A DNA stretch of 64,000 nt from NCBI GenBank assembly GCA_028715785.1, contig JAQURC010000002.1, forward strand, positions 76,322-140,321, read 5' to 3'. This stretch comes from Candidatus Omnitrophota bacterium. Its GTDB lineage: Bacteria; Omnitrophota; Gorgyraeia; Gygaellales; Profunditerraquicolaceae. Position numbers and translations under genes: made by a program. The notes below the pieces were generated by a model. It was not told where the DNA came from. It saw only the letters and a program-made list of their open reading frames with translations, and ran no database searches. This document shows positions 1,276 to 64,000 of this stretch, in pieces (the first letter of the stretch is position 1; every line of letters starts with the position of its first letter).

Positions 1276-1325
1276 CACCCCGCGCTTATAAGGTATTGCG
1301 CGGGTGTGCCCTTGTGGGCTAGGAG
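1276..1325 (+). repeat. intercistronic two-hairpin element, copy 1 of 5, immediately 5' of the pstS RBS and start
   Basis: CACCCCGCGC-TTATAAGGTATT-GCGCGGGTG (about 9-bp stem) + GCCC-TTGT-GGGC (4-bp stem) + AGGAG, 8 nt before the ATG. Near-identical copies at 6765, 46996 and 63701; a covarying copy at 41808. Confidence 0.7.
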
Positions 1326-5210: not shown

Positions 5211-6176
5211 GTGAATTTTTATCTTATCGGAACAGATTGTCAAAGCGCGGATTTAATTAAACGCGAGCAGATCAGCGCAAGGCGCCGGCAGATCAGCCTT
5301 TACTGGGCAAAGTTTTTTTCTGAAATGGCGGCATTATCTACCTGTAATCGTTTTGAGCTTTATGGAATTGCCGGTGAATCAATAAAATTTCCGCGGATTG
5401 AGGCGGGTTGGTATTTTATAGAGGGCAAGGTAAATGTTTTTGCTCACGCTTTGAGGGTGGCTGTCGGCCTTGAGTCCCGCCTTAAAGGGGAATTACAAAT
5501 TTTAGAGCAGATAAATTCCTGGTCTAATAAGATTCCCGCAAGCTTAGCCGGACTTTGGAACAGGGCTTACTCCGACGCTCTTCTTATACGCGGGGAATCA
5601 GGGCTCAATGGCCGGGATAATATTGCTACTTTTGTATTCGATGACATGAAAAAAAAATTAACCCGGGGAAATGAATTGAGAATTGTGGTAATCGGAACAG
5701 GCAAGATTGCCGGGCTTTTGGCGGAGCACCGGCCTGCTAAGGCGCGTTTAATTTTTGCGGCCCATAAAAATAAATTTGCCGCCGAAAAACTGGCGGAATC
5801 AGCCCGCGGCGTAACGGTATCTTTAAGTGGCTTAGCTGAAGTTTTAGCTGAAGCGGATTTTTTAGTCAGCGCTACCGCAAGCCCGCATTTTATTCTTAAG
5901 GCGGAAGAATTGGAAAGGATAGCTTGGCGGCGCAAGAGGCCATTGTATATTTATGATTTAGCCGTCCCCAGGGATATCGAGCCGGCGGCAGGCCAAATAG
6001 CGGGGATAGTTTTAAAGAACCTTGATGATTTATCTTTTGTTTTCAAAGAGCATAATGATAGAATAAAAAATAATTTGTTTCTGGCGGAATACCTTGTCGG
6101 AGAAAAGATTAAAGAATATGAAAAAAACTTTAAGGTTGGGAGCCCGCCCAAGCCCGCTATCCTTAAAACAGGTTGA
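5211..6176 (+). CDS. hemA: glutamyl-tRNA reductase HemA (short; C-terminal dimerization domain apparently absent)
   Basis: LSTCNRFELYG catalytic-Cys motif and NADPH-binding VIGTGKIAGLLAEH. Only 321 aa versus about 420 canonical. GTG start. Confidence 0.65.
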   Translation: MNFYLIGTDCQSADLIKREQISARRRQISLYWAKFFSEMAALSTCNRFELYGIAGESIKFPRIEAGWYFIEGKVNVFAHALRVAVGLESRLKGELQILEQINSWSNKIPASLAGLWNRAYSDALLIRGESGLNGRDNIATFVFDDMKKKLTRGNELRIVVIGTGKIAGLLAEHRPAKARLIFAAHKNKFAAEKLAESARGVTVSLSGLAEVLAEADFLVSATASPHFILKAEELERIAWRRKRPLYIYDLAVPRDIEPAAGQIAGIVLKNLDDLSFVFKEHNDRIKNNLFLAEYLVGEKIKEYEKNFKVGSPPKPAILKTG

Positions 6177-6831
6177 TGAAATAAAGGATATTTTCCCCTT
6201 TATTGATTTTGAGGTTCTTACTTATCAAACGCAGGGGGATAGGGATAAACATACGCCTTTTACGGGCTTGGAAGGCAGTGATTTTTTTACCCGCCGGCTT
6301 GAAGAGGCGTTGTTAAAAAACGAGATAGATGTTGCGGTGCATAGCGCTAAAGATTTAGAAGAAAATCCGCCTTCCGGATTAACAATTGCCGCGATCACCG
6401 CCTCCATAAGCCCTTATGAATGCCTGGTTTCTTGCGGCAATAAACTTTTGGGGGCGCTTAAGCCGGGCAGCAAGGTTGCTACCAGCAGCTCCAAACGCAA
6501 AAACGCGCTTTTACGCTATCGCAGCGATCTTGAAATATGCGATGTGCGCGGCAATATCGAAGAACGTTTATATCAGTTGGATGCGGGGAAGTTTGACGCT
6601 CTCATTGTGGCGCATGCGGCCCTGATTAGGCTTGGGCTTGAAAATAGGATCGCGGAAATTATCCCTGATTGGATTATTCCCGCGCACCCTTTGCAAGGGT
6701 CTTTAGCCCTGCAGGTGCGCAGTGATAATCAAGGTTTAATAGATCTATTCAGTGTAGTAAGCAACACCCCGCGCTTAAAGGAATTGCGCGGGTGCGCCCT
6801 TGCGGGCAAGGAGAAAAAGAATGCGGATTAA
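6118..6831 (+). CDS. hemC: porphobilinogen deaminase HemC (short; most of domain 3 missing)
   Basis: MKKTLRLGARPSPLSLKQ N-terminus with HSAKDL and ALIVAHAALIRLGLE motifs. About 237 aa versus about 310. The last ~20 codons are encoded by repeat-element copy 2. Overlaps the hemA 3' end by about 59 nt in another frame. Confidence 0.65.
   Translation: MKKTLRLGARPSPLSLKQVDEIKDIFPFIDFEVLTYQTQGDRDKHTPFTGLEGSDFFTRRLEEALLKNEIDVAVHSAKDLEENPPSGLTIAAITASISPYECLVSCGNKLLGALKPGSKVATSSSKRKNALLRYRSDLEICDVRGNIEERLYQLDAGKFDALIVAHAALIRLGLENRIAEIIPDWIIPAHPLQGSLALQVRSDNQGLIDLFSVVSNTPRLKELRGCALAGKEKKNAD
6765..6813 (+). repeat. intercistronic two-hairpin element, copy 2 (overlaps hemC 3' codons; 5' of thiS-metY start)
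   Basis: CACCCCGCGC-TTAAAGGAATT-GCGCGGGTG + GCCC-TTGC-GGGC + AAGGAG, then ATG at 6821. Confidence 0.7.
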
Positions 6832-8260
6832 AATAAACGGCAAAGAACAATTGGTTGATGATCGGGATCCATCGATTACCGGATTACTAAAGGCGGCTAA
6901 TGTGGAAAATCCCCAGATGGTCTCTGTTCAGCTCAACGGGAAATTTGTTGACCGGTCGAAATTTGACAAGCTGCGTTTGAAAGAGGGTGACCATCTGGAT
7001 TTTCTTTATTTTATGGGAGGAGGGAACGGATTAAGATTTATCACTAAAATTTTGCATACTAAATTTTCAAAAGAAGATCCGCACGGGTCTTTGCATATGC
7101 CGGTCTATGACAATGTGGCTTTTGAGTTTAAGACCGCCGAGGACCTGGAGCTTGCCTTCCAGGGCAAGAAACCTTCACATATGTACAGCCGCATAAGTAA
7201 TCCTACGGTCGAACATTTTGAACAAAGAATCAAGGCTATAACCGCTGGCGCGGGTGTAATCGCGCTTTCTTCCGGAATGGCGGCTATCTCCAATACCATT
7301 TTAACCGTTGCCAGGAGCAAAGATAATATCATTACTTCCAAACACCTTTTCGGCAACACCTATTCTTTATTTGAAAATACGCTTAAAGAGTGGGGTTTAG
7401 AGACCCGCTATGTTGATTTGACCAGGCCGGAAAAAGTAAGCCGGCTTATCGACGCAAAAACCAAAGCGATATTCCTTGAGACAATTACCAATCCCCAGCT
7501 TGAGGTGGCGGATATCAAGGCTCTTTCTGAAATAGCTGGAAGAAAAAATATCCTGCTTATTGCCGATACTACCATGACCCCGCCGTATATTTTTTCAGCC
7601 AAGGAATTCGGCGTGGATATTGAAGTTATCTCAAGCACCAAGTGGATTTCCGGAGGCGCAACCAGCGTCGGAGGTTTAATTATCGACCATGGGCTTTATG
7701 ATTGGAAAAAGAATGATAAGCTGCATAGTGACGCGGTTAAGTTCGGCCCTTTTGCTTTTATCAGCCGGCTCAGGCGTGAGGTGTACAGGAACATCGGGGC
7801 CTGTATGTCCGCGCATAACGCCTATCTTCAAGGCTTGGGGCTGGAAACATTGCCGTTGAGGCTTGATATTGCCTGCGCCAATACGCTTAAGATCGCGGAA
7901 TTTTTAAAAGAGGCCTCCCGGGTGAAATCCGTAAATTATCCCGGGCTTGGCGATTCTGCTTACTATGAAACTGCCCGTAAGCAATTCGGGGATAAGCCGG
8001 GGGCGGTTTTAACTTTTGACCTGGCATCGAAAAAAGAGTGTTTTTGTTTCCTGAATAACTTAAAACTTATCCGCAGGGCTACGAATTTACATGATAACCG
8101 CTCGCTGATTTTGCATCCGGGATCAACGATCTTTTGCGAATACGACGACGCGCTTAAAAATGAGATGGGGGTAAGGGACACTTTGATCAGGCTTGCCGTG
8201 GGTATCGAGGATTACCGGGATTTAATTTCCGATATACAACAGGCCCTGGAGGGTTTATGA
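6821..8260 (+). CDS. ThiS/MoaD-like sulfur-carrier domain (ends FMGGG) fused to O-acetylhomoserine sulfhydrylase (MetY)
   Basis: The N-terminal 66 aa have the ThiS pattern and end in Gly-Gly-Gly. The remainder is PLP-dependent OAH sulfhydrylase (HMYSRISNPTV, SSTKWISGGATSVGG). The ATG is preceded by the element RBS. Confidence 0.75.
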   Translation: MRIKINGKEQLVDDRDPSITGLLKAANVENPQMVSVQLNGKFVDRSKFDKLRLKEGDHLDFLYFMGGGNGLRFITKILHTKFSKEDPHGSLHMPVYDNVAFEFKTAEDLELAFQGKKPSHMYSRISNPTVEHFEQRIKAITAGAGVIALSSGMAAISNTILTVARSKDNIITSKHLFGNTYSLFENTLKEWGLETRYVDLTRPEKVSRLIDAKTKAIFLETITNPQLEVADIKALSEIAGRKNILLIADTTMTPPYIFSAKEFGVDIEVISSTKWISGGATSVGGLIIDHGLYDWKKNDKLHSDAVKFGPFAFISRLRREVYRNIGACMSAHNAYLQGLGLETLPLRLDIACANTLKIAEFLKEASRVKSVNYPGLGDSAYYETARKQFGDKPGAVLTFDLASKKECFCFLNNLKLIRRATNLHDNRSLILHPGSTIFCEYDDALKNEMGVRDTLIRLAVGIEDYRDLISDIQQALEGL

Positions 8261-41807: not shown

Positions 41808-41858
41808 ACACCCGGCGCTAAGCAGAATTACGCCGGTGCGTGTCTCTACACAGGGAGG
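41808..41858 (+). repeat. intercistronic two-hairpin element, copy 5 (covarying variant)
   Basis: ACACCCGGCGC-TAAGCAGAATTA-CGCCGGTGCGT + GTGT-CTCT-ACAC + AGGGAGG, 8 nt before ATG 41866. Both stems differ in sequence from copies 1-4 yet keep their pairing. Confidence 0.6.
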
Positions 41859-41865
41859 TGACAAA

Positions 41866-43440
41866 ATGCGGAAAATAGTCATTGGTTTTGCCGTGGTTTG
41901 GTTGGGGGCGCTGGCTGGTGTTATTTGGGCCCAGGATCTGAATTGGGATGACCTAAGCAGTGGCAATCATAATGCCCAGGTGATTTTAGTTAACCCAAAC
42001 GATAGCAAAATTATTTTTGCCGGGATGCCGGGGAGCATATTAAAAAGCGAGGATGGCGGCAATAGCTGGCGAACTGTTCTATCCATAAGAAGCGCAGCGC
42101 GCAATATTAATGCTTTAACAATGAATCCTTCAAATCACAATGTCGTTTATGCGGCTGCCGATAATGGCCTATACCGCAGCAATAATTCAGGCGGCCGATG
42201 GGACAGGATATTTAGAGGCAGAAATAATTTAGAGAATCGATGTTTGGCGGTGTTGAATACTCCACTTGCCCTGTTTGCCGGTACCAGCGCCGGACTTTTT
42301 ATAAGCCGGGATAACGGCCGCAGCTGGGATAAGGAAAATAAAATAATCGGCAATACCGCCGTTCTTAACCTTGATTATTGCCATAATCAAAATTCAGTCA
42401 TTTATTTAGCCGCCGCAAGCGGGATATTTAAATCTTCGGATTATGGTAAAAACTGGGAGAGGATTTTTTTGAGTCATCCCGGAGAAGATAATCAGAACGA
42501 ATTTGACGGTGAAGAAGCAGATATTCCGGAGGAGTCATCGGATATCCGTTTTGTAAAGGCAGGTATTAATAACGCAAACCTGGTATATTTTTCATGCGCC
42601 AAAGGAGTTTATCGAAGCTTGGACCAAGGCAGAAGTTGGGATAAATTATCCGAGCATGGTTTGTTAAACCGGGATGTGAAAATGCTTTGTTTATCGGGTA
42701 GCCTTCAGATTTTTGCGCTTAGCCAATCGGGTGTTTTTATTTATGAAGATGGGCGCTGGAGAGAAGTTTCTTTCGGTTTGTCAGCGGGAAAATTAAATTA
42801 TTTTACGTTAGATACTATGGATAATATTTATGTTGCCGCAGAAGGGGGAATATTTAAGGCCAAGCAAGATAGCCAGGCAGTCTTTATCCGGCAGGGTTTA
42901 ATCCAGGAGTATATTAAGGATGAGCCAAAAATAAAAGAGGTACAGGAGGCGGCAATAAAATACGCAGAAGTTGGCCCTGAAAAAATATCTCAATGGAGAA
43001 AGAAAGCGGCAAAAAAAGCGTTATTGCCGCAGGTCAGCGTCGGCCTGGACCGCAACACGACTGACTTATGGCACTGGGAGGGTGGTTCGACTACTAAAAC
43101 CGACGATGATATTCTGCGGCGGGGCAGGGATAACCTGGATTGGGATGTTTCTTTAAGCTGGGATTTAAGCAATTTGATCTGGGATGATGCCCAGACAAGC
43201 ATCGATGTGCGGTCAAAGCTGATGGTGGAGCTGCGCGATGATATTTTAGACCAGGTAAACAAGCTCTATTTTGAGCGCTTGAGGATAAAATCTGAGCTGA
43301 ATAATTTAGCCATTGAAGACAGGAATAAAAGATTCGATAAACAGTTAAAACTTGAGGAGTTAACCGCTTCCCTGGACGCGCTTACATCCGGGTATTACTC
43401 GCAACAACTGCGCAAGTTATCCCCAAAAAAGCAAAGCTAA
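41866..43440 (+). CDS. secreted BNR/Asp-box repeat beta-propeller protein (Ycf48-like) with C-terminal coiled coil
   Basis: Signal peptide; repeated SxDxGxxW motifs (SEDGGNSW, SNNSGGRW, SRDNGRSW, SSDYGKNW, SLDQGRSW). True start at 41866 after GGGAGGTG. Confidence 0.6.
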   Translation: MRKIVIGFAVVWLGALAGVIWAQDLNWDDLSSGNHNAQVILVNPNDSKIIFAGMPGSILKSEDGGNSWRTVLSIRSAARNINALTMNPSNHNVVYAAADNGLYRSNNSGGRWDRIFRGRNNLENRCLAVLNTPLALFAGTSAGLFISRDNGRSWDKENKIIGNTAVLNLDYCHNQNSVIYLAAASGIFKSSDYGKNWERIFLSHPGEDNQNEFDGEEADIPEESSDIRFVKAGINNANLVYFSCAKGVYRSLDQGRSWDKLSEHGLLNRDVKMLCLSGSLQIFALSQSGVFIYEDGRWREVSFGLSAGKLNYFTLDTMDNIYVAAEGGIFKAKQDSQAVFIRQGLIQEYIKDEPKIKEVQEAAIKYAEVGPEKISQWRKKAAKKALLPQVSVGLDRNTTDLWHWEGGSTTKTDDDILRRGRDNLDWDVSLSWDLSNLIWDDAQTSIDVRSKLMVELRDDILDQVNKLYFERLRIKSELNNLAIEDRNKRFDKQLKLEELTASLDALTSGYYSQQLRKLSPKKQS

Positions 43441-45018: not shown

Positions 45019-45948
45019 ATGGATGCTGTCATGAGGATCAGGAAGCTGGCGAAAAGAAAAATCAAAACGATAGTTTTGCCGGAATACGATGACGATCGGA
45101 CGCTTGAGGCCGCCCGGATTATTGAAAAGGAGAAGTTAGCCAAGCCTTTGGTTTTGACTCCGGATATGGTCGATAAGAATGAATTGGAGCGTTACATCGA
45201 GGGGTATTATAAATTATACCAGTCAAAAGATATCGATTTGGACACGGTCAAAAAACTTTTTTCGGATAATCTCTATTATGCGGCGATGATGACCAGAGAA
45301 GGAAAGGCCGACGGCCTGGTTGCCGGAGCAATCCATACTACCGCGGATATGGCCCGCGCCTGTATCCGTTGTATCGGCTTGGAAGAAAGGTTTACCATTG
45401 CTTCAAGTTGTTTTATTATGGATGTGCCCAACTGCCAGTATGGCGATAACGGCACATTTATTTTTGCCGATTGCGGAGTTATCCCCGATCCTAATGCCCG
45501 CCAGCTATCCTGCATTGCTTTAACCGCCGCGGAACTGGCCGCTAAAGTCCTGGATCTTACTCCGCGCGTGGCATTTTTGAGTTATTCCACGAAAGGATCG
45601 GCAAAAACAAAATCTGCCGAAAAAATCAGCCAGGCCCTGGCTTCACTCAGAGAGTTATCGCCGACAATATTAGCTGACGGAGAAATCCAGGCGGACGCGG
45701 CAATTGTCCCGGAAGTTGCCAGGATAAAATGCCCGGACAGCCCGATTAACGGAGAGGCGAACGTGCTGATTTTTCCAAACCTGGAAGCCGGCAATATCAG
45801 CTATAAGCTTGTGCAGCGGCTAAGCGGATGCCGGGCAATCGGGCCGCTATTTTTGGGTTTAAATAAACCGGCAAGTGATTTATCGCGCGGTTGTTTCGTC
45901 GAAGATATCGTTGACAGCGTGGCAGTTACGGCAATCAGGGCGCAATGA
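45019..45948 (+). CDS. pta: phosphate acetyltransferase (catalytic PTA_PTB domain)
   Basis: 309 aa; SYSTKGSAK and GNISYKL motifs. Confidence 0.8.
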   Translation: MDAVMRIRKLAKRKIKTIVLPEYDDDRTLEAARIIEKEKLAKPLVLTPDMVDKNELERYIEGYYKLYQSKDIDLDTVKKLFSDNLYYAAMMTREGKADGLVAGAIHTTADMARACIRCIGLEERFTIASSCFIMDVPNCQYGDNGTFIFADCGVIPDPNARQLSCIALTAAELAAKVLDLTPRVAFLSYSTKGSAKTKSAEKISQALASLRELSPTILADGEIQADAAIVPEVARIKCPDSPINGEANVLIFPNLEAGNISYKLVQRLSGCRAIGPLFLGLNKPASDLSRGCFVEDIVDSVAVTAIRAQ

Positions 45949-47009
45949 TGAAGATACTGGTAATTAACAGCGGAAGCTCATCGATTAAATATAAACTTTT
46001 TGATATGCCTTCCCAGCGCCTGATTACAAAAGGATTGATCGATCGTATCGGTGAAGCAGGTTCAAAGTTTAGCAACCATTATTCAGGTTTAAAGGTCATA
46101 CTGGAGAAGATCAAATCGGTGGACGCGGTGGGCCATCGCGTAGTCCACGGAGCGGAAAAATTTAAAAAGCCCACACTGGTTGACCAAAACGTGATTAAGG
46201 GGATTAAAAAATGCTGCGCGATCGCTCCTTTGCATAATCCGGCAAATTTATCGGGTATACTTGCCTGCCAAAAGCTTCTGCCCGGGACAAAACAGGTTGC
46301 GGTTTTTGATACCGCGTTCCACCAGAGCATCCCGGAGCATGCTTATATCTACGGGTTGCCGTATGAGTATTATCAAAGATTAGGTGCCCGAAAATATGGT
46401 TTTCACGGCACCAGCCACGAGTATGTTGCCGCCGAGGCCAGCCGTATTTTAAAGAAACCTCTGAATAAGTTAAAATTGATTACCTGCCACCTGGGCAATG
46501 GCTGCAGTATTACCGCTATTGACAAAGGCAAATCCGTTGATACCAGCATGGGCTTTACTCCTTTAGAGGGCTTGGTTATGGGCACCCGCTGCGGCGATAC
46601 GGACCCGGCCTTAATCATTCATATTATGCGCAAGAAAAAATTGGATACCAAACAAATGGACCGTATTTTGAATAAAGAAAGCGGGTTAAAAGGGATATCC
46701 GGCATCAGCAATGATGTGCGTTTGCTGGAGGAGAAGGTAGGCGCCGGGAACAAGCGGGCCAAACTGGCTTTGGATATATTTGTTTACCGGATCAGGAAAT
46801 ATATCGGCGCCTACCTGTCGGTTTTAGGCGGGCTTGACGCTTTGATATTTACCGCAGGTATCGGCGAGAACCAGGCTGATATCAGGGAGAATATTTGCCG
46901 CGGCTTGTTTGGCTGCTTAGGAAAAAAACCAAAAATCATGATAATCCCTACGAATGAAGAGCTGATGATCGCCCGGCAGACCTTTAAGTTGATAACACGC
47001 CGCGCTTAG
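45945..47009 (+). CDS. ackA: acetate kinase
   Basis: ILVINSGSSSIKYKLFDM, HRVVHG, PTNEELMIARQT. The stop codon lies inside element copy 3. Confidence 0.85.
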   Translation: MMKILVINSGSSSIKYKLFDMPSQRLITKGLIDRIGEAGSKFSNHYSGLKVILEKIKSVDAVGHRVVHGAEKFKKPTLVDQNVIKGIKKCCAIAPLHNPANLSGILACQKLLPGTKQVAVFDTAFHQSIPEHAYIYGLPYEYYQRLGARKYGFHGTSHEYVAAEASRILKKPLNKLKLITCHLGNGCSITAIDKGKSVDTSMGFTPLEGLVMGTRCGDTDPALIIHIMRKKKLDTKQMDRILNKESGLKGISGISNDVRLLEEKVGAGNKRAKLALDIFVYRIRKYIGAYLSVLGGLDALIFTAGIGENQADIRENICRGLFGCLGKKPKIMIIPTNEELMIARQTFKLITRRA

Positions 47010-47064
47010 CGGAATTGCGCGCCTGCCTGCCGGCAGGCAGGGGTGTGCCCTTCTGGGCAAGGAG
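46996..47064 (+). repeat. intercistronic two-hairpin element, copy 3 (with nested 20-bp palindrome insertion)
   Basis: CACGCCGCGC-TTAGCGGAATT-GCGCG [CCTGCCTGCC|GGCAGGCAGG] GGTG + GCCC-TTCT-GGGC + AAGGAG, then ATG of panD at 47073. Confidence 0.65.
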
Positions 47065-47072
47065 AAAATAGA

Positions 47073-47423
47073 ATGTTAAGGACAATGTTAAAATCAAAGA
47101 TCCACCGGGCAACCGTAACCGAGGCCAACCTTTATTATGAAGGCAGTATCACCATTGATGCCGATTTGATCCGGGCAGCCGATATCCTGGAGCACGAAAA
47201 AGTGGAGGTGTTGAACCTTAATAACGGCCAGCGTATTGAAACTTATGTGATTAAAGGCAAGGCCGGCAGCGGGGTGATTTGCCTGAATGGGCCGGCAGCC
47301 CGCGGTTCATGCCCCGGCGACACCGTGATTATTGTTTCGTACGTATCAGTGGAAGATAAGGAAACCAAATCTTTAAAGCCCAAGATCATTAAAGTAAATG
47401 CCAGGAACAAAATTAAAAATTAG
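47073..47423 (+). CDS. panD: aspartate 1-decarboxylase
   Basis: [29 protein letters not shown] (pyruvoyl Gly-Ser cleavage site). Confidence 0.85.
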
Positions 47424-53704: not shown

Positions 53705-53730
53705 TGTATCCGGTTATCATTTAAGAAAAT

Positions 53731-53765
53731 AAACCCCGTGCCTTGCGGCGCGGGGTTTATTCTTT
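53731..53765 (+). terminator. intrinsic terminator
   Basis: AAACCCCG-tgccttgcggcg-CGGGGTTT followed by ATTCTTTGTG. Confidence 0.55.
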
Positions 53766-63172: not shown

Positions 63173-63700
63173 ATGGAAGAGCCTGAAAAGAAATCCGCCT
63201 CCGGCGGAAAGGAAGAAAAAACAGTTACCCTGAAAGAAGCGGAATATTTGGCGCTTTTGGAAGAGGTCAAAAAGGGCAAGGACAGCTGGGACAAAATGCT
63301 CCGGAACCAGGCTGACCTGGAAAATACCCGTAAGCGCTTAGACCGGGAAAAACAGGAATTTATAAAATTTGCCAATGAAGGTTTGGTGCTGGACCTGCTC
63401 AATGTGCTCGATGACCTTGAGCGGACGGTTAATTTAGCGGAATCAACCAAACAGGACCTTGCTGCTTTCTTAAAAGGCGTAGAGATGATTCTTGCGCACT
63501 TGTATGAAATGTTAAAAGAGCACGGAGTAAAGCCGATTGAGGCTGAGGGTAAAATATTTGATCCAAATTACCATGAAGCCTTGATGCAGGTTGAAAGCAA
63601 GGATTTACCGGAGCACACGATAATTGAGGTTTTGCAAAAAGGATATTTAATTCACGAGCGGGTACTGCGTACCGCCAAAGTAAAAGTTTCAAAAAAATAA
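63173..63700 (+). CDS. grpE: nucleotide exchange factor GrpE
   Basis: [13 protein letters not shown], then the C-terminal beta-domain. Confidence 0.85.
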
Positions 63701-63750
63701 CACCCCGCGCTTATAATGAATTGCGCGGGTGCGCCCTTGTGGGCAGGGAG
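63701..63750 (+). repeat. intercistronic two-hairpin element, copy 4 (between grpE and dnaK)
   Basis: CACCCCGCGC-TTATAATGAATT-GCGCGGGTG + GCCC-TTGT-GGGC + AGGGAGG, then ATG 63757. Confidence 0.7.
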
Positions 63751-63756
63751 GATAAT

Positions 63757-64000
63757 ATGGCAAAGGTAATCGGTATTGATTTAGGGACATCTAATTCAGC
63801 GGCAGCAGTTATGGAAGGCGGCAGGCCGGTAATTATTCCATCAGCCGAAGGCGCAGGCGTTGCTTCAGGCAAGGCGTTTCCTTCTTATGTCGCTTTTACT
63901 AAAGACGGACAGCGCCTGGTCGGTGAGCCGGCAAGGCGTCAGGCAGCCATTAATGCCGAAGGGACAATCCAGGCGGCTAAGCGCAAAATGGGCACGGATT
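63757..64000 (+). CDS. dnaK: chaperone DnaK (5' partial; runs off window)
   Basis: [18 protein letters not shown]. Confidence 0.9.

Follow-up and report, generated by a model that had tools for sequence, protein, structure and literature searches.

A two-hairpin repeat, probably a previously undescribed interspersed family, lies between upstream genes and native Shine-Dalgarno sequences in Omnitrophota

A 64,000-nt stretch of DNA (the window) from a metagenome-assembled genome (MAG) of Candidatus Omnitrophota, identified as such by its GrpE and read on both strands, holds five copies of a 46- to 48-nt repeat made of two hairpins, each copy lying 5′ of the Shine-Dalgarno (SD) sequence and start codon of a different gene. 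Comparison with relatives reveals that this element is an insertion between the end of the upstream open reading frame (ORF) and the native SD of the downstream gene, and that copies have been gained and lost at orthologous junctions between congeneric genomes. With moderate confidence, we interpret the copies as members of a small, non-autonomous, hairpin-type interspersed repeat family of Omnitrophota that is similar in kind to REP and PATE elements and was previously undescribed; no account of it was found in the literature, Omnitrophota genome papers included. The family is set apart by a combination of features: a pair of hairpins in each unit, a single orientation, a position fixed to the nucleotide at the 5′ edge of the SD, and stop codons supplied by the element itself.

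Each unit consists of an optional A, a first hairpin (hp1) formed by CACCCCGCGC, an 11- to 12-nt loop and GCGCGGGTG, and a second hairpin (hp2) of the form T/C-GCCC-TTGT-GGGC-A. In the window copies, the unit is followed by (A/G)GGAG, with the ATG 5-8 nt further on. The 9-bp hp1 spans 30-31 nt and is bulged, its 5′ arm having one C more than its 3′ arm, and in alignments its feet read (A/G)CAC...GTG(T). The unit termini are (A)CACCCC... and ...GGGCA(A), and inverted repeats are confined to the internal stems. A covariance model of hp1 and hp2, with the SD left out, returned exactly five matches over the 64 kb, all on the + strand and scoring 72.6, 68.0, 67.5, 44.5 and 32.1 bits (E values from 4e-15 to 2e-5), with the next match at an E value of 0.2. 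A broader second model recovered the same five copies and no others in the window, where the strict hp1 pattern was seen twice against 0.02 occurrences expected by chance. All five copies listed in an earlier note on this DNA were thus located by the model as well as by inspection of the sequence, and Pfam matches confirmed their neighbors as porin/PstS, HemC/ThiS-MetY, AckA/PanD, GrpE/DnaK and radical-SAM/BNR genes. A lookup of the exact PstS protein yielded no record.

Three of the five sites are empty in a congener, GCA_028716245.1, which is ~86-87% identical to the window at the nucleotide level and is represented by L195 and L203 among the loci that we fetched from relatives (numbered L###; 2-20 kb read per locus, from MAGs). 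Copy 1 occupies the porin-pstS junction (1275-1321, + strand; hp1 1276-1306, hp2 1307-1321; 72.6 bits), with an hp1 composed of CACCCCGCGC, the loop TTATAAGGTATT and GCGCGGGTG, and an hp2 core of GCCC-TTGT-GGGC. The porin stop codon (TAA, 1272-1274, +) is followed directly by A1275, and the repeat by the native SD (GGAG, 1322-1325, +), a spacer and the pstS ATG (1332-1334). The corresponding junction in L203 reads AAATTTTA|AGGGAGGAAAAATG (...TTTTA|AGGGAGG), without the element and with the SD present. Copy 2 lies between hemC and thiS-metY (6764-6809, +; hp1 6765-6794, hp2 6795-6809; 67.5 bits), ahead of the native SD (GGAG, 6810-6813, +) and the thiS-metY ATG (6821-6823); it too is missing from L203, where the SD is present and the sequence is GTAGTAGATACATAT|AAGGAGAAAAACAATG (...GATACATAT|AAGGAG). 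This copy lies in frame within the last codons of hemC, and the ORF continues through it to the ancestral TAA at 6829-6831. HemC is 237-245 amino acids long here versus 215-224 in most of the listed Omnitrophota homologues (range ~196-240), and the extension of 13-20 amino acids is confined to the window lineage. Because HemC reads through the element and exceeds most homologues in length, the filled state at copy 2 is the derived one.

Copy 4, at the grpE-dnaK junction (63700-63745, +; hp1 63701-63731, hp2 63732-63745; 68 bits), is absent from L195, which reads AAAAAAAC|GGGAGGTTGATATG and in which GrpE runs through the SD. The window has ...AAAAAAATAA[element]GGGAGGATAATATG, retaining the SD (GGGAGG, 63746-63751, +), the spacer and the old grpE stop codon, now a relic (TAA, 63753-63755) just ahead of the dnaK ATG (63757-63759). 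GrpE is three codons shorter in the window, its new stop (TAA, 63698-63700, +) being completed by A63700, the first nucleotide of copy 4. A fourth comparison comes from L139 and L147, whose last 300 nt of grpE are 99% identical and of which L139 carries two extra tandem copies directly before GGAGGTTAA. The SD is native, because congeners that lack the element keep the same SD and the same downstream spacer; these four filled/empty comparisons (copies 1, 2 and 4, and L139/L147) rule out an element that carries its own SD, as had been suggested in the earlier note. Across 80 orthologous grpE loci from metagenomes (356 kb), grpE and dnaK are usually separated by a junction of just 1-20 nt; in many cases grpE extends past the dnaK SD or ends in the SD-ATG spacer, and about a dozen loci carry the element.

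The two remaining window copies have more complex histories. Copy 3, at the ackA-panD junction (46995-47060, +; hp1 5′ arm and loop 46996-47016, hp2 47046-47060; 41.3 bits), precedes an SD (GGAG, 47061-47064, +) and the panD ATG (47073-47075). The ackA stop codon (TAG, 47007-47009, +) lies within its hp1 loop, so that in the window the ORF ends of both hemC (6094-6831) and ackA are encoded by element sequence, and the hp1 3′ arm is split by a 20-nt perfect palindrome, CCTGCCTGCCGGCAGGCAGG (47022-47041, no strand assigned). At the orthologous site, L200, from a relative with 91% nucleotide identity to the window, and L201 have no more of the element than its 5′ arm and the left loop half, joined directly to the SD (CACCCCGCGTTTATTATAAGG|AG), a remnant that would be explained by a deletion between the AAGGA of the loop and the AAGGA of the SD. 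In L202 the copy has diverged yet still comprises both hairpins in full. Copy 5, a diverged member 5′ of a BNR/sortilin-like gene (41808-41852, +; hp1 41809-41838, hp2 41839-41852; 44.5 bits), is followed by an SD (GGGAGG, 41853-41858, +) and the ATG (41866-41868). Its hp1, CACCCGGCGC...ACGCCGGTG, has one compensatory pair and a broken closing pair, which is intact in the conserved copy of L200; its hp2, GTGT-CTCT-ACAC, has a stem wholly different from those of the other window copies and yet fully complementary. The earlier note placed all five copies at intercistronic sites. Copy 5 probably resides in a 5′ leader instead, because it lies 46 nt 3′ of the upstream stop codon and because L200 has a terminator-like hairpin of 44 nt with a T-run (AAGAGGGC...GCCCTCTT; L200:700-760) between the radical-SAM gene and this copy, a hairpin that has no counterpart in the window (cf. 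41770). The congener GCA_028716245.1, though without copies 1, 2 and 4, has a perfect consensus copy 5′ of cysH, and an ortholog of that copy in L204 has diverged by compensatory changes.

To define the distribution of the family, we scanned species-representative genomes with the exact hp1 core pattern, which identified at least 114 loci. At least ~97 of these belong to Omnitrophota and represent at least ~52 species, one of them Ca. Velamenicoccus archaeovorus (L054), whose genome is complete. A few loci counted here are labelled Planctomycetes or Bacillota, yet carry the full element, and the remaining loci are chance matches without the flanking features. The core pattern did not occur in viral contigs.

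Placement and orientation were tallied for 138 copies in the fetched loci, spanning many genomes. The SD core (GGAG or GAGG) begins at offset 0 from the end of the model in 60 of the 138 copies and at +1 in 8; it falls within ±3 nt in 74, against an assumed chance rate of 6% (p ~1e-52; the window background for an offset of 0-4 nt is 4.4%). The start codon follows 8-14 nt after the first base of the SD core. Where both flanking genes point the same way, 85 copies are sense and 2 antisense. Nearly all window genes lie on the + strand, hence co-orientation there proves little and the wider set carries the evidence. Measured from the start of the element, upstream stop codons form two clusters, 0 to -3 and +13 to +18, which correspond to its 5′ edge (TAA|CACC) and to a TAA or TAG in the hp1 loop (CTTATAAGG). 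The genes downstream serve diverse functions and include high-output genes such as dnaK, groES, rplL, rpsP, rpmI, rplT, rpsF, rpsH, ssb and HU. The placement directly 5′ of SD and start codon, the shared orientation and the unrelatedness of the downstream genes, all features described in the earlier note for the window, are therefore borne out in the wider loci.

Copies that do not abut an SD are the upstream members of tandem or nested arrays, a subfamily with GCnTTCTGC-type hp2, and a few that adjoin tRNA genes (L020:909-1084; L103:4591-4704; L001:2752-2870; L098:1405-1523); some copies in convergent or divergent spacers also lack an SD. In L001 and L098, the GGAGG found 3 nt from a copy does not belong to an SD; it represents the antisense of a tRNA-Thr acceptor stem. 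With respect to the tRNA genes themselves, tRNA-Arg(CCT) in L020 is flanked by an inverted pair of copies, the 5′ end of a tRNA-Gly(CCC) is overlapped by 4 nt by one copy, and the 3′ end of a tRNA-Thr is abutted by one copy on the opposite strand.

The two hairpins are supported by extensive covariation. In an alignment of 54 canonical copies, 96% of cells are paired, hp2 covaries heavily, and the outermost hp1 pair switches from C-G to U-A with U.G intermediates. Among 126 model matches, double-sided changes occur at 10 of 14 pairs and in both hairpins (164 cells versus 31 in shuffles), and controls with a slid register collapse; compensatory changes, whose absence the earlier note would have counted against the element, are abundant in this larger alignment. 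In addition, 24 non-canonical copies have stems outside the search pattern (for example CTGGCGC/GCGCCAG, CCAACGC/GCGTTGG, CCGGCCC/GGGCCGG and CCCACGC/GCGTGGG). The loop stays constant while the stems vary, conforming to TTA(n)nGG(A/T)ATT, with GG in 84-88% of copies and GGA in 56-62%. Both RNAalifold and single-sequence folds form the two hairpins and leave the SD unpaired. The structure is real, and the data do not tell RNA from single-stranded DNA as the selected form, because the reverse strand folds with equal energy and the wobble pairs that might report the strand of action are present in similar numbers (32 G.U versus 22 A.C; difference not significant).

The same data bear on the proposal that hp1 acts as a double-stranded DNA site, serving as an operator or nucleoid-protein site for a dimeric protein. 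The inverted repeat CACCCCGCGC-N11/12-GCGCGGGTG is indeed highly conserved, as such a site would be. The stem halves, however, covary so as to preserve pairing and do not keep a half-site sequence, one arm has a conserved unpaired C, the loop is asymmetric, and a second hairpin follows that is conserved only in structure. The copies are moreover placed at stop/SD junctions within operons rather than at promoters, and with strict polarity, so that we consider a double-stranded DNA site very improbable.

A classical cis-regulatory RNA, be it a riboswitch, an attenuator, an RNA thermometer or an intrinsic terminator, might be suspected from a structured 5′ element beside a ribosome-binding site, particularly as one copy precedes dnaK and others precede groES. 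No Rfam family matched the window at the gathering score, and copy 1 yielded only chance-level matches at E<=10 (E values of 1.1 and 7.4). The diversity of the downstream genes argues against such an RNA and agrees with the earlier note in dismissing a metabolite riboswitch. The SD remains accessible; (A)GGAG stands after hp1 and hp2 where a terminator would have a T-run, so that a U-tract is lacking; and presence or absence differs between congeners. Promoter, terminator and thermometer readings are ruled out on anatomy, and this whole class of explanations seems to us scarcely credible. A bidirectional terminator-like hairpin does occur in the window at ~53727-53762 (AAATAAACCCCGTGCCTTGCGGCGCGGGGTTTATT, with an A-tract and a T-tract); it is matched weakly by the model on both strands and is unrelated to the family.

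The copies themselves display the dynamics of an interspersed repeat. The 45-nt consensus stands unchanged 5′ of a different gene in each of five species, and copies at ten genes depart from it by at most one mismatch. Nested copies lie in the hp1 loops of others, always between ...A(A)GG and AATT, and tandem arrays and orphan 3′ halves are also present. The two-hairpin family is thus shown to have a master copy common to several species, along with nested, tandem and partly deleted forms. Clusters are irregularly spaced, at 47-560 nt, and this spacing, together with the dispersal of the copies, excludes a CRISPR repeat; an integron attC site is excluded by the lack of a GTTRRRY core and by the housekeeping nature of the flanking genes. 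With regard to target-site duplication, flank matches at k = 2-5 did not exceed those of shuffled pairings, with a single marginal exception at k = 2, and no duplication was seen in the filled/empty pairs. An apparent TAA...TAA direct repeat is due to the ancestral stop codon being kept 3′ of the SD. Derivation from a DDE transposon as a MITE was rejected, as the unit ends have no terminal inverted repeats and there is no target-site duplication. When an autonomous parent was sought as hp1 halves 0.3-4 kb apart, only nested composites of 76-77 nt (up to ~125 nt) were found.

Among known systems, the family most invites comparison with the REP/BIME/REPIN-RAYT repeats of Enterobacteria and Pseudomonas. 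Like these, it is built on a short (~30 nt), imperfect, GC-rich palindrome repeated in extragenic and intercistronic DNA; it is presumably transcribed with its neighbors, lacks target duplication, occurs in nested and clustered copies, and has a master sequence that persists across related species. A repeated imperfect palindrome of 20-40 bp, as is usual for REPs, is present in 5 copies per 64 kb and in 138 copies in loci from at least ~52 species. On one side, REP and REPIN palindromes terminate in a GTAG or CGTC tag that is unpaired (PMC3733652). The Omnitrophota repeat has no such tag, GTAG appearing only inside some hp2 variants, and has the foot (A)CAC...GTG(T) in its place; furthermore, its unit includes a second, variable hairpin. 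REPs mostly form inverted doublets, whereas the Omnitrophota copies are single, tandem-direct or nested, with one inverted pair (L020), and REPs reside mostly downstream of genes or between convergent genes, whereas these copies lie 5′ of the SD in one orientation. REPs also have a cognate single-copy RAYT, usually with REPs on its flanks, whereas no RAYT match appeared among the sampled ORF segments. The label "REP-like" given in the earlier note therefore points to the right neighborhood, and strict membership fails on tag, arrangement and placement.

HUH/Y1 elements such as IS200/IS605 and REP-RAYT combine hairpins with a 4- to 5-nt target and generate no duplication. The present family resembles IS200/IS605 and PATEs in having hairpins without terminal inverted repeats or target-site duplications, in its strand-specific location beside a fixed tetra- or pentanucleotide, and in the potential for seamless loss. 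It differs from IS200/IS605 in being only ~47 nt long, in that no Y1 transposase was found in the fetched loci, and in its putative target, CTCC/GGAG, which is the ribosome-binding site, nested copies being flanked by AATT instead. We know of no precedent for an insertion target identical to the ribosome-binding site. Correia (CREE), ERIC, BOX and RUP repeats are likewise small, non-coding and co-transcribed with their neighbors, and can alter mRNA processing or stability; unlike the Omnitrophota repeat, they measure 100-150 bp, have terminal inverted repeats and, in the case of Correia, a TA duplication, and none sits at a fixed nucleotide distance from the SD.

Stable 5′ hairpins and intercistronic stem-loops are familiar from the ompA 5′ hairpin, the STAB-SD of B. 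thuringiensis cryIIIA and the malE-malF REP, and REPs located <=15 nt from a stop codon affect the upstream gene. The Omnitrophota repeat resembles such stabilizers in having a stable hairpin immediately ahead of an exposed SD or just after a stop codon, and by analogy a consequence at the RNA level is likely; the stabilizer hairpins differ in being single-locus features or ordinary REPs. These parallels raise the possibility that the element is at heart a cis-acting RNA module of the host, in which hp1 would be a protein-binding hairpin, hp2 a structural spacer, and dispersal incidental. Such a module would stabilize or insulate the downstream cistron, uncouple the upstream ORF, or recruit a global post-transcriptional regulator or the 30S subunit. 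In its favor, the loop sequence UAAGGA resembles both an SD and a CsrA site, 98% of copies are sense where orientation can be judged, and the loop is constant while the stem covaries, even in the 24 copies with non-canonical stems. Compensatory evolution at orthologous sites, an SD that is always unpaired and abuts hp2, the recurrent occupation of the grpE-dnaK junction across lineages, and the high output relative to the upstream neighbor that is needed from many of the downstream genes (dnaK after grpE, and the rplL, rpsP, rpmI, rplT, rpsF, rpsH, groES, ssb and HU genes) point the same way.

Several observations nevertheless make a host RNA module rather doubtful as the primary explanation. 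Close relatives lack the element at three of the five window sites and have the same SD; unrelated genes of different species have 45-mers that are identical even at the "free" positions of the loop and hp2; and nested, tandem, truncated and tRNA-flanking copies exist, along with SD-less ones in convergent and divergent spacers. The G.U count, moreover, is not significantly above that of A.C, and so gives no signature of selection on a sense-strand RNA. A CsrA-type site, consisting of a GGA in the loop together with the SD, was rejected as an explanation in its own right because of the low frequency of the loop GGA, which also counts against the broader RNA-module proposal within which it is retained. 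That proposal is compatible with an interspersed repeat family, since the element could be a domesticated repeat.

Within the interpretation of the copies as an interspersed repeat family, we tentatively suggest that the repeat is a hairpin transposon that takes the ribosome-binding site (GGAG/CTCC) as the address for integration, entering 1 nt 5′ of the SD core in the orientation of the gene, equipped with built-in stops and a compact fold, kept up across the phylum by a putative hairpin-recognizing enzyme, and perhaps partly domesticated at sites such as grpE-dnaK. An enzyme supplied in trans would recognize hp1 through its loop (TTA..GG(A/T)ATT), bulged C and CAC/GTG foot and would spread the element, with strand-specific integration beside GGAG (CTCC on the other strand), as in single-strand HUH/Y1 elements. 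Such an enzyme is proposed because of the bulged hairpin, the lack of inverted repeats and of duplication, the strict polarity and the fixed tetranucleotide. Some support for GGAG-targeted integration is provided by the copy beside the non-SD GGAGG that is antisense to tRNA-Thr.

Once inserted, the element is presumably transcribed, because it lies inside operons in the sense orientation, and two compact mRNA hairpins would then leave the SD single-stranded. Insertion would on that account be tolerated and would set the upstream stop codon apart from the downstream initiation site. The built-in stops (the edge A that completes a TAA, or the TAA/TAG of the loop) end the interrupted upstream ORF. 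The hairpins may bring the upstream stop and the downstream SD near to each other in space, and a stable stem would then adjoin both the 3′ side of the stop and the 5′ side of the initiation region. If the element confers a benefit, for instance by protecting a 5′ end, insulating the cistron that follows or weakening read-through coupling, that benefit would be secondary. By analogy with known stabilizers, an added role in insulating or stabilizing the downstream cistron is plausible, and the element could protect that cistron, lower coupling or cut upstream expression. An essential role is disfavored by the close relatives that seem to manage with the same genes and the same SD without the element.

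Several findings weigh against a mobile repeat or against its proposed address. On the hp2 side, nested copies are flanked by AATT and not by GGAG, and ~10% of gene-proximal copies are without a canonical SD; a simple GGAG target does not cover all subfamilies because of these two classes. At the left junction, filled and empty alleles differ by a few extra bases, so that any cut sites placed there are approximate. A phmmer search for a Y1 transposase or RAYT, with IS608, IS200 and RAYT queries, gave no match among 4,631 ORF segments (~1.2 Mb), a tiny sample of the genomes. Loci L001-L114 were picked by the exact hp1 core pattern, and conservation of hp1 is overstated there. Orthologous copies show compensatory changes in all helices (L139/L146, L203/L204 and window copy 3/L202), for which re-insertion or gene conversion is no better an explanation than selection on structure at the level of the host. 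Finally, in the 356 kb around grpE from the 80 relatives, all 12 of 12 matches fall at the grpE-dnaK junction, a concentration suggestive of a hotspot or of an advantage peculiar to this site. Taken with the orthologous compensatory changes, this concentration offers sequence-level evidence that may indicate in-situ selection on structure, and hence some domestication.

Other repeats occupy the same kinds of junction. The palindrome CCTGCCTGCCGGCAGGCAGG that is nested in the hp1 3′ arm of window copy 3 is nested identically in L054 (L054:2150) and represents a second repeat family, which also occurs alone directly 5′ of an SD and ATG in several Omnitrophota genomes, including those of L047, L065 and L204. 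The sites recorded outside the window and L054 are L047:4098, L065:4689, L204:2899, L204:7655, L198:10560 and L049:1543. The hemC to thiS-metY junction of L204 carries this palindrome where the window has copy 2. At other Omnitrophota grpE-dnaK junctions, unrelated hairpin or short-tandem repeats are found (L117, L123 and L144; L126, L127, L129 and L167; L160, L163 and L164; L169 and L194; L153 and L171); those of L153 and L171 have an hp2-like GCCCTTnnGGGC hairpin and an SD, with a different AT-rich hairpin ahead. The junction between stop codon and SD thus seems to be a general sink for palindromic insertions. The window has ~65 credible genes across positions 1-64000, nearly all on the + strand and with many junctions overlapping or shorter than 20 nt, and this extreme strand bias and compaction limit where insertions are tolerated.

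Some features of the flanking genes were also recorded. The short form of HemC in Omnitrophota, mostly 215-224 amino acids, is without the C-terminal domain of porphobilinogen deaminase, and AckA in the window (45945-47009) has ~354 amino acids, with a Pfam match that ends at profile position 347 of 392. The thiS-metY gene (6821-8260) encodes, in one ORF of 479 amino acids, a ThiS-like domain joined to an O-acetylhomoserine sulfhydrylase (Cys_Met_Meta_PP); ThiF and JAB genes come after it in relatives, and the arrangement suggests a sulfur-carrier-dependent pathway to homocysteine and methionine. L195 contains a prophage-like block (L195:1189-5099; Terminase_2, Phage_rep_O and a serine recombinase) 5′ of a radical-SAM/miaB-like gene, and its synteny with the window (~58267) begins only past this block.

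The element explains odd ORF ends in Omnitrophota MAGs, where GrpE, HemC and AckA are truncated or extended by it, and it adds noise to assembly and annotation where the genes of an operon meet. Filled/empty polymorphisms of the kind described here are usable as strain-level population markers for Omnitrophota, and a natural 47-nt module that presumably can occupy the space between stop codon and SD and leave downstream expression in place is a candidate insulator or stabilizer as well as a handle for finding the protein that would bind it. The exact placement at the SD edge, the strict polarity and the lack of duplication imply either a new mode of target recognition or unusually sharp selection, and either would extend knowledge of REP-RAYT and IS200/IS605 systems into an uncultivated phylum with compact, strand-biased genomes. 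If it proved to be an SD-targeting hairpin transposon, the repeat would be without precedent among known mobile elements in its choice of target and would constitute a natural "insulator" part.

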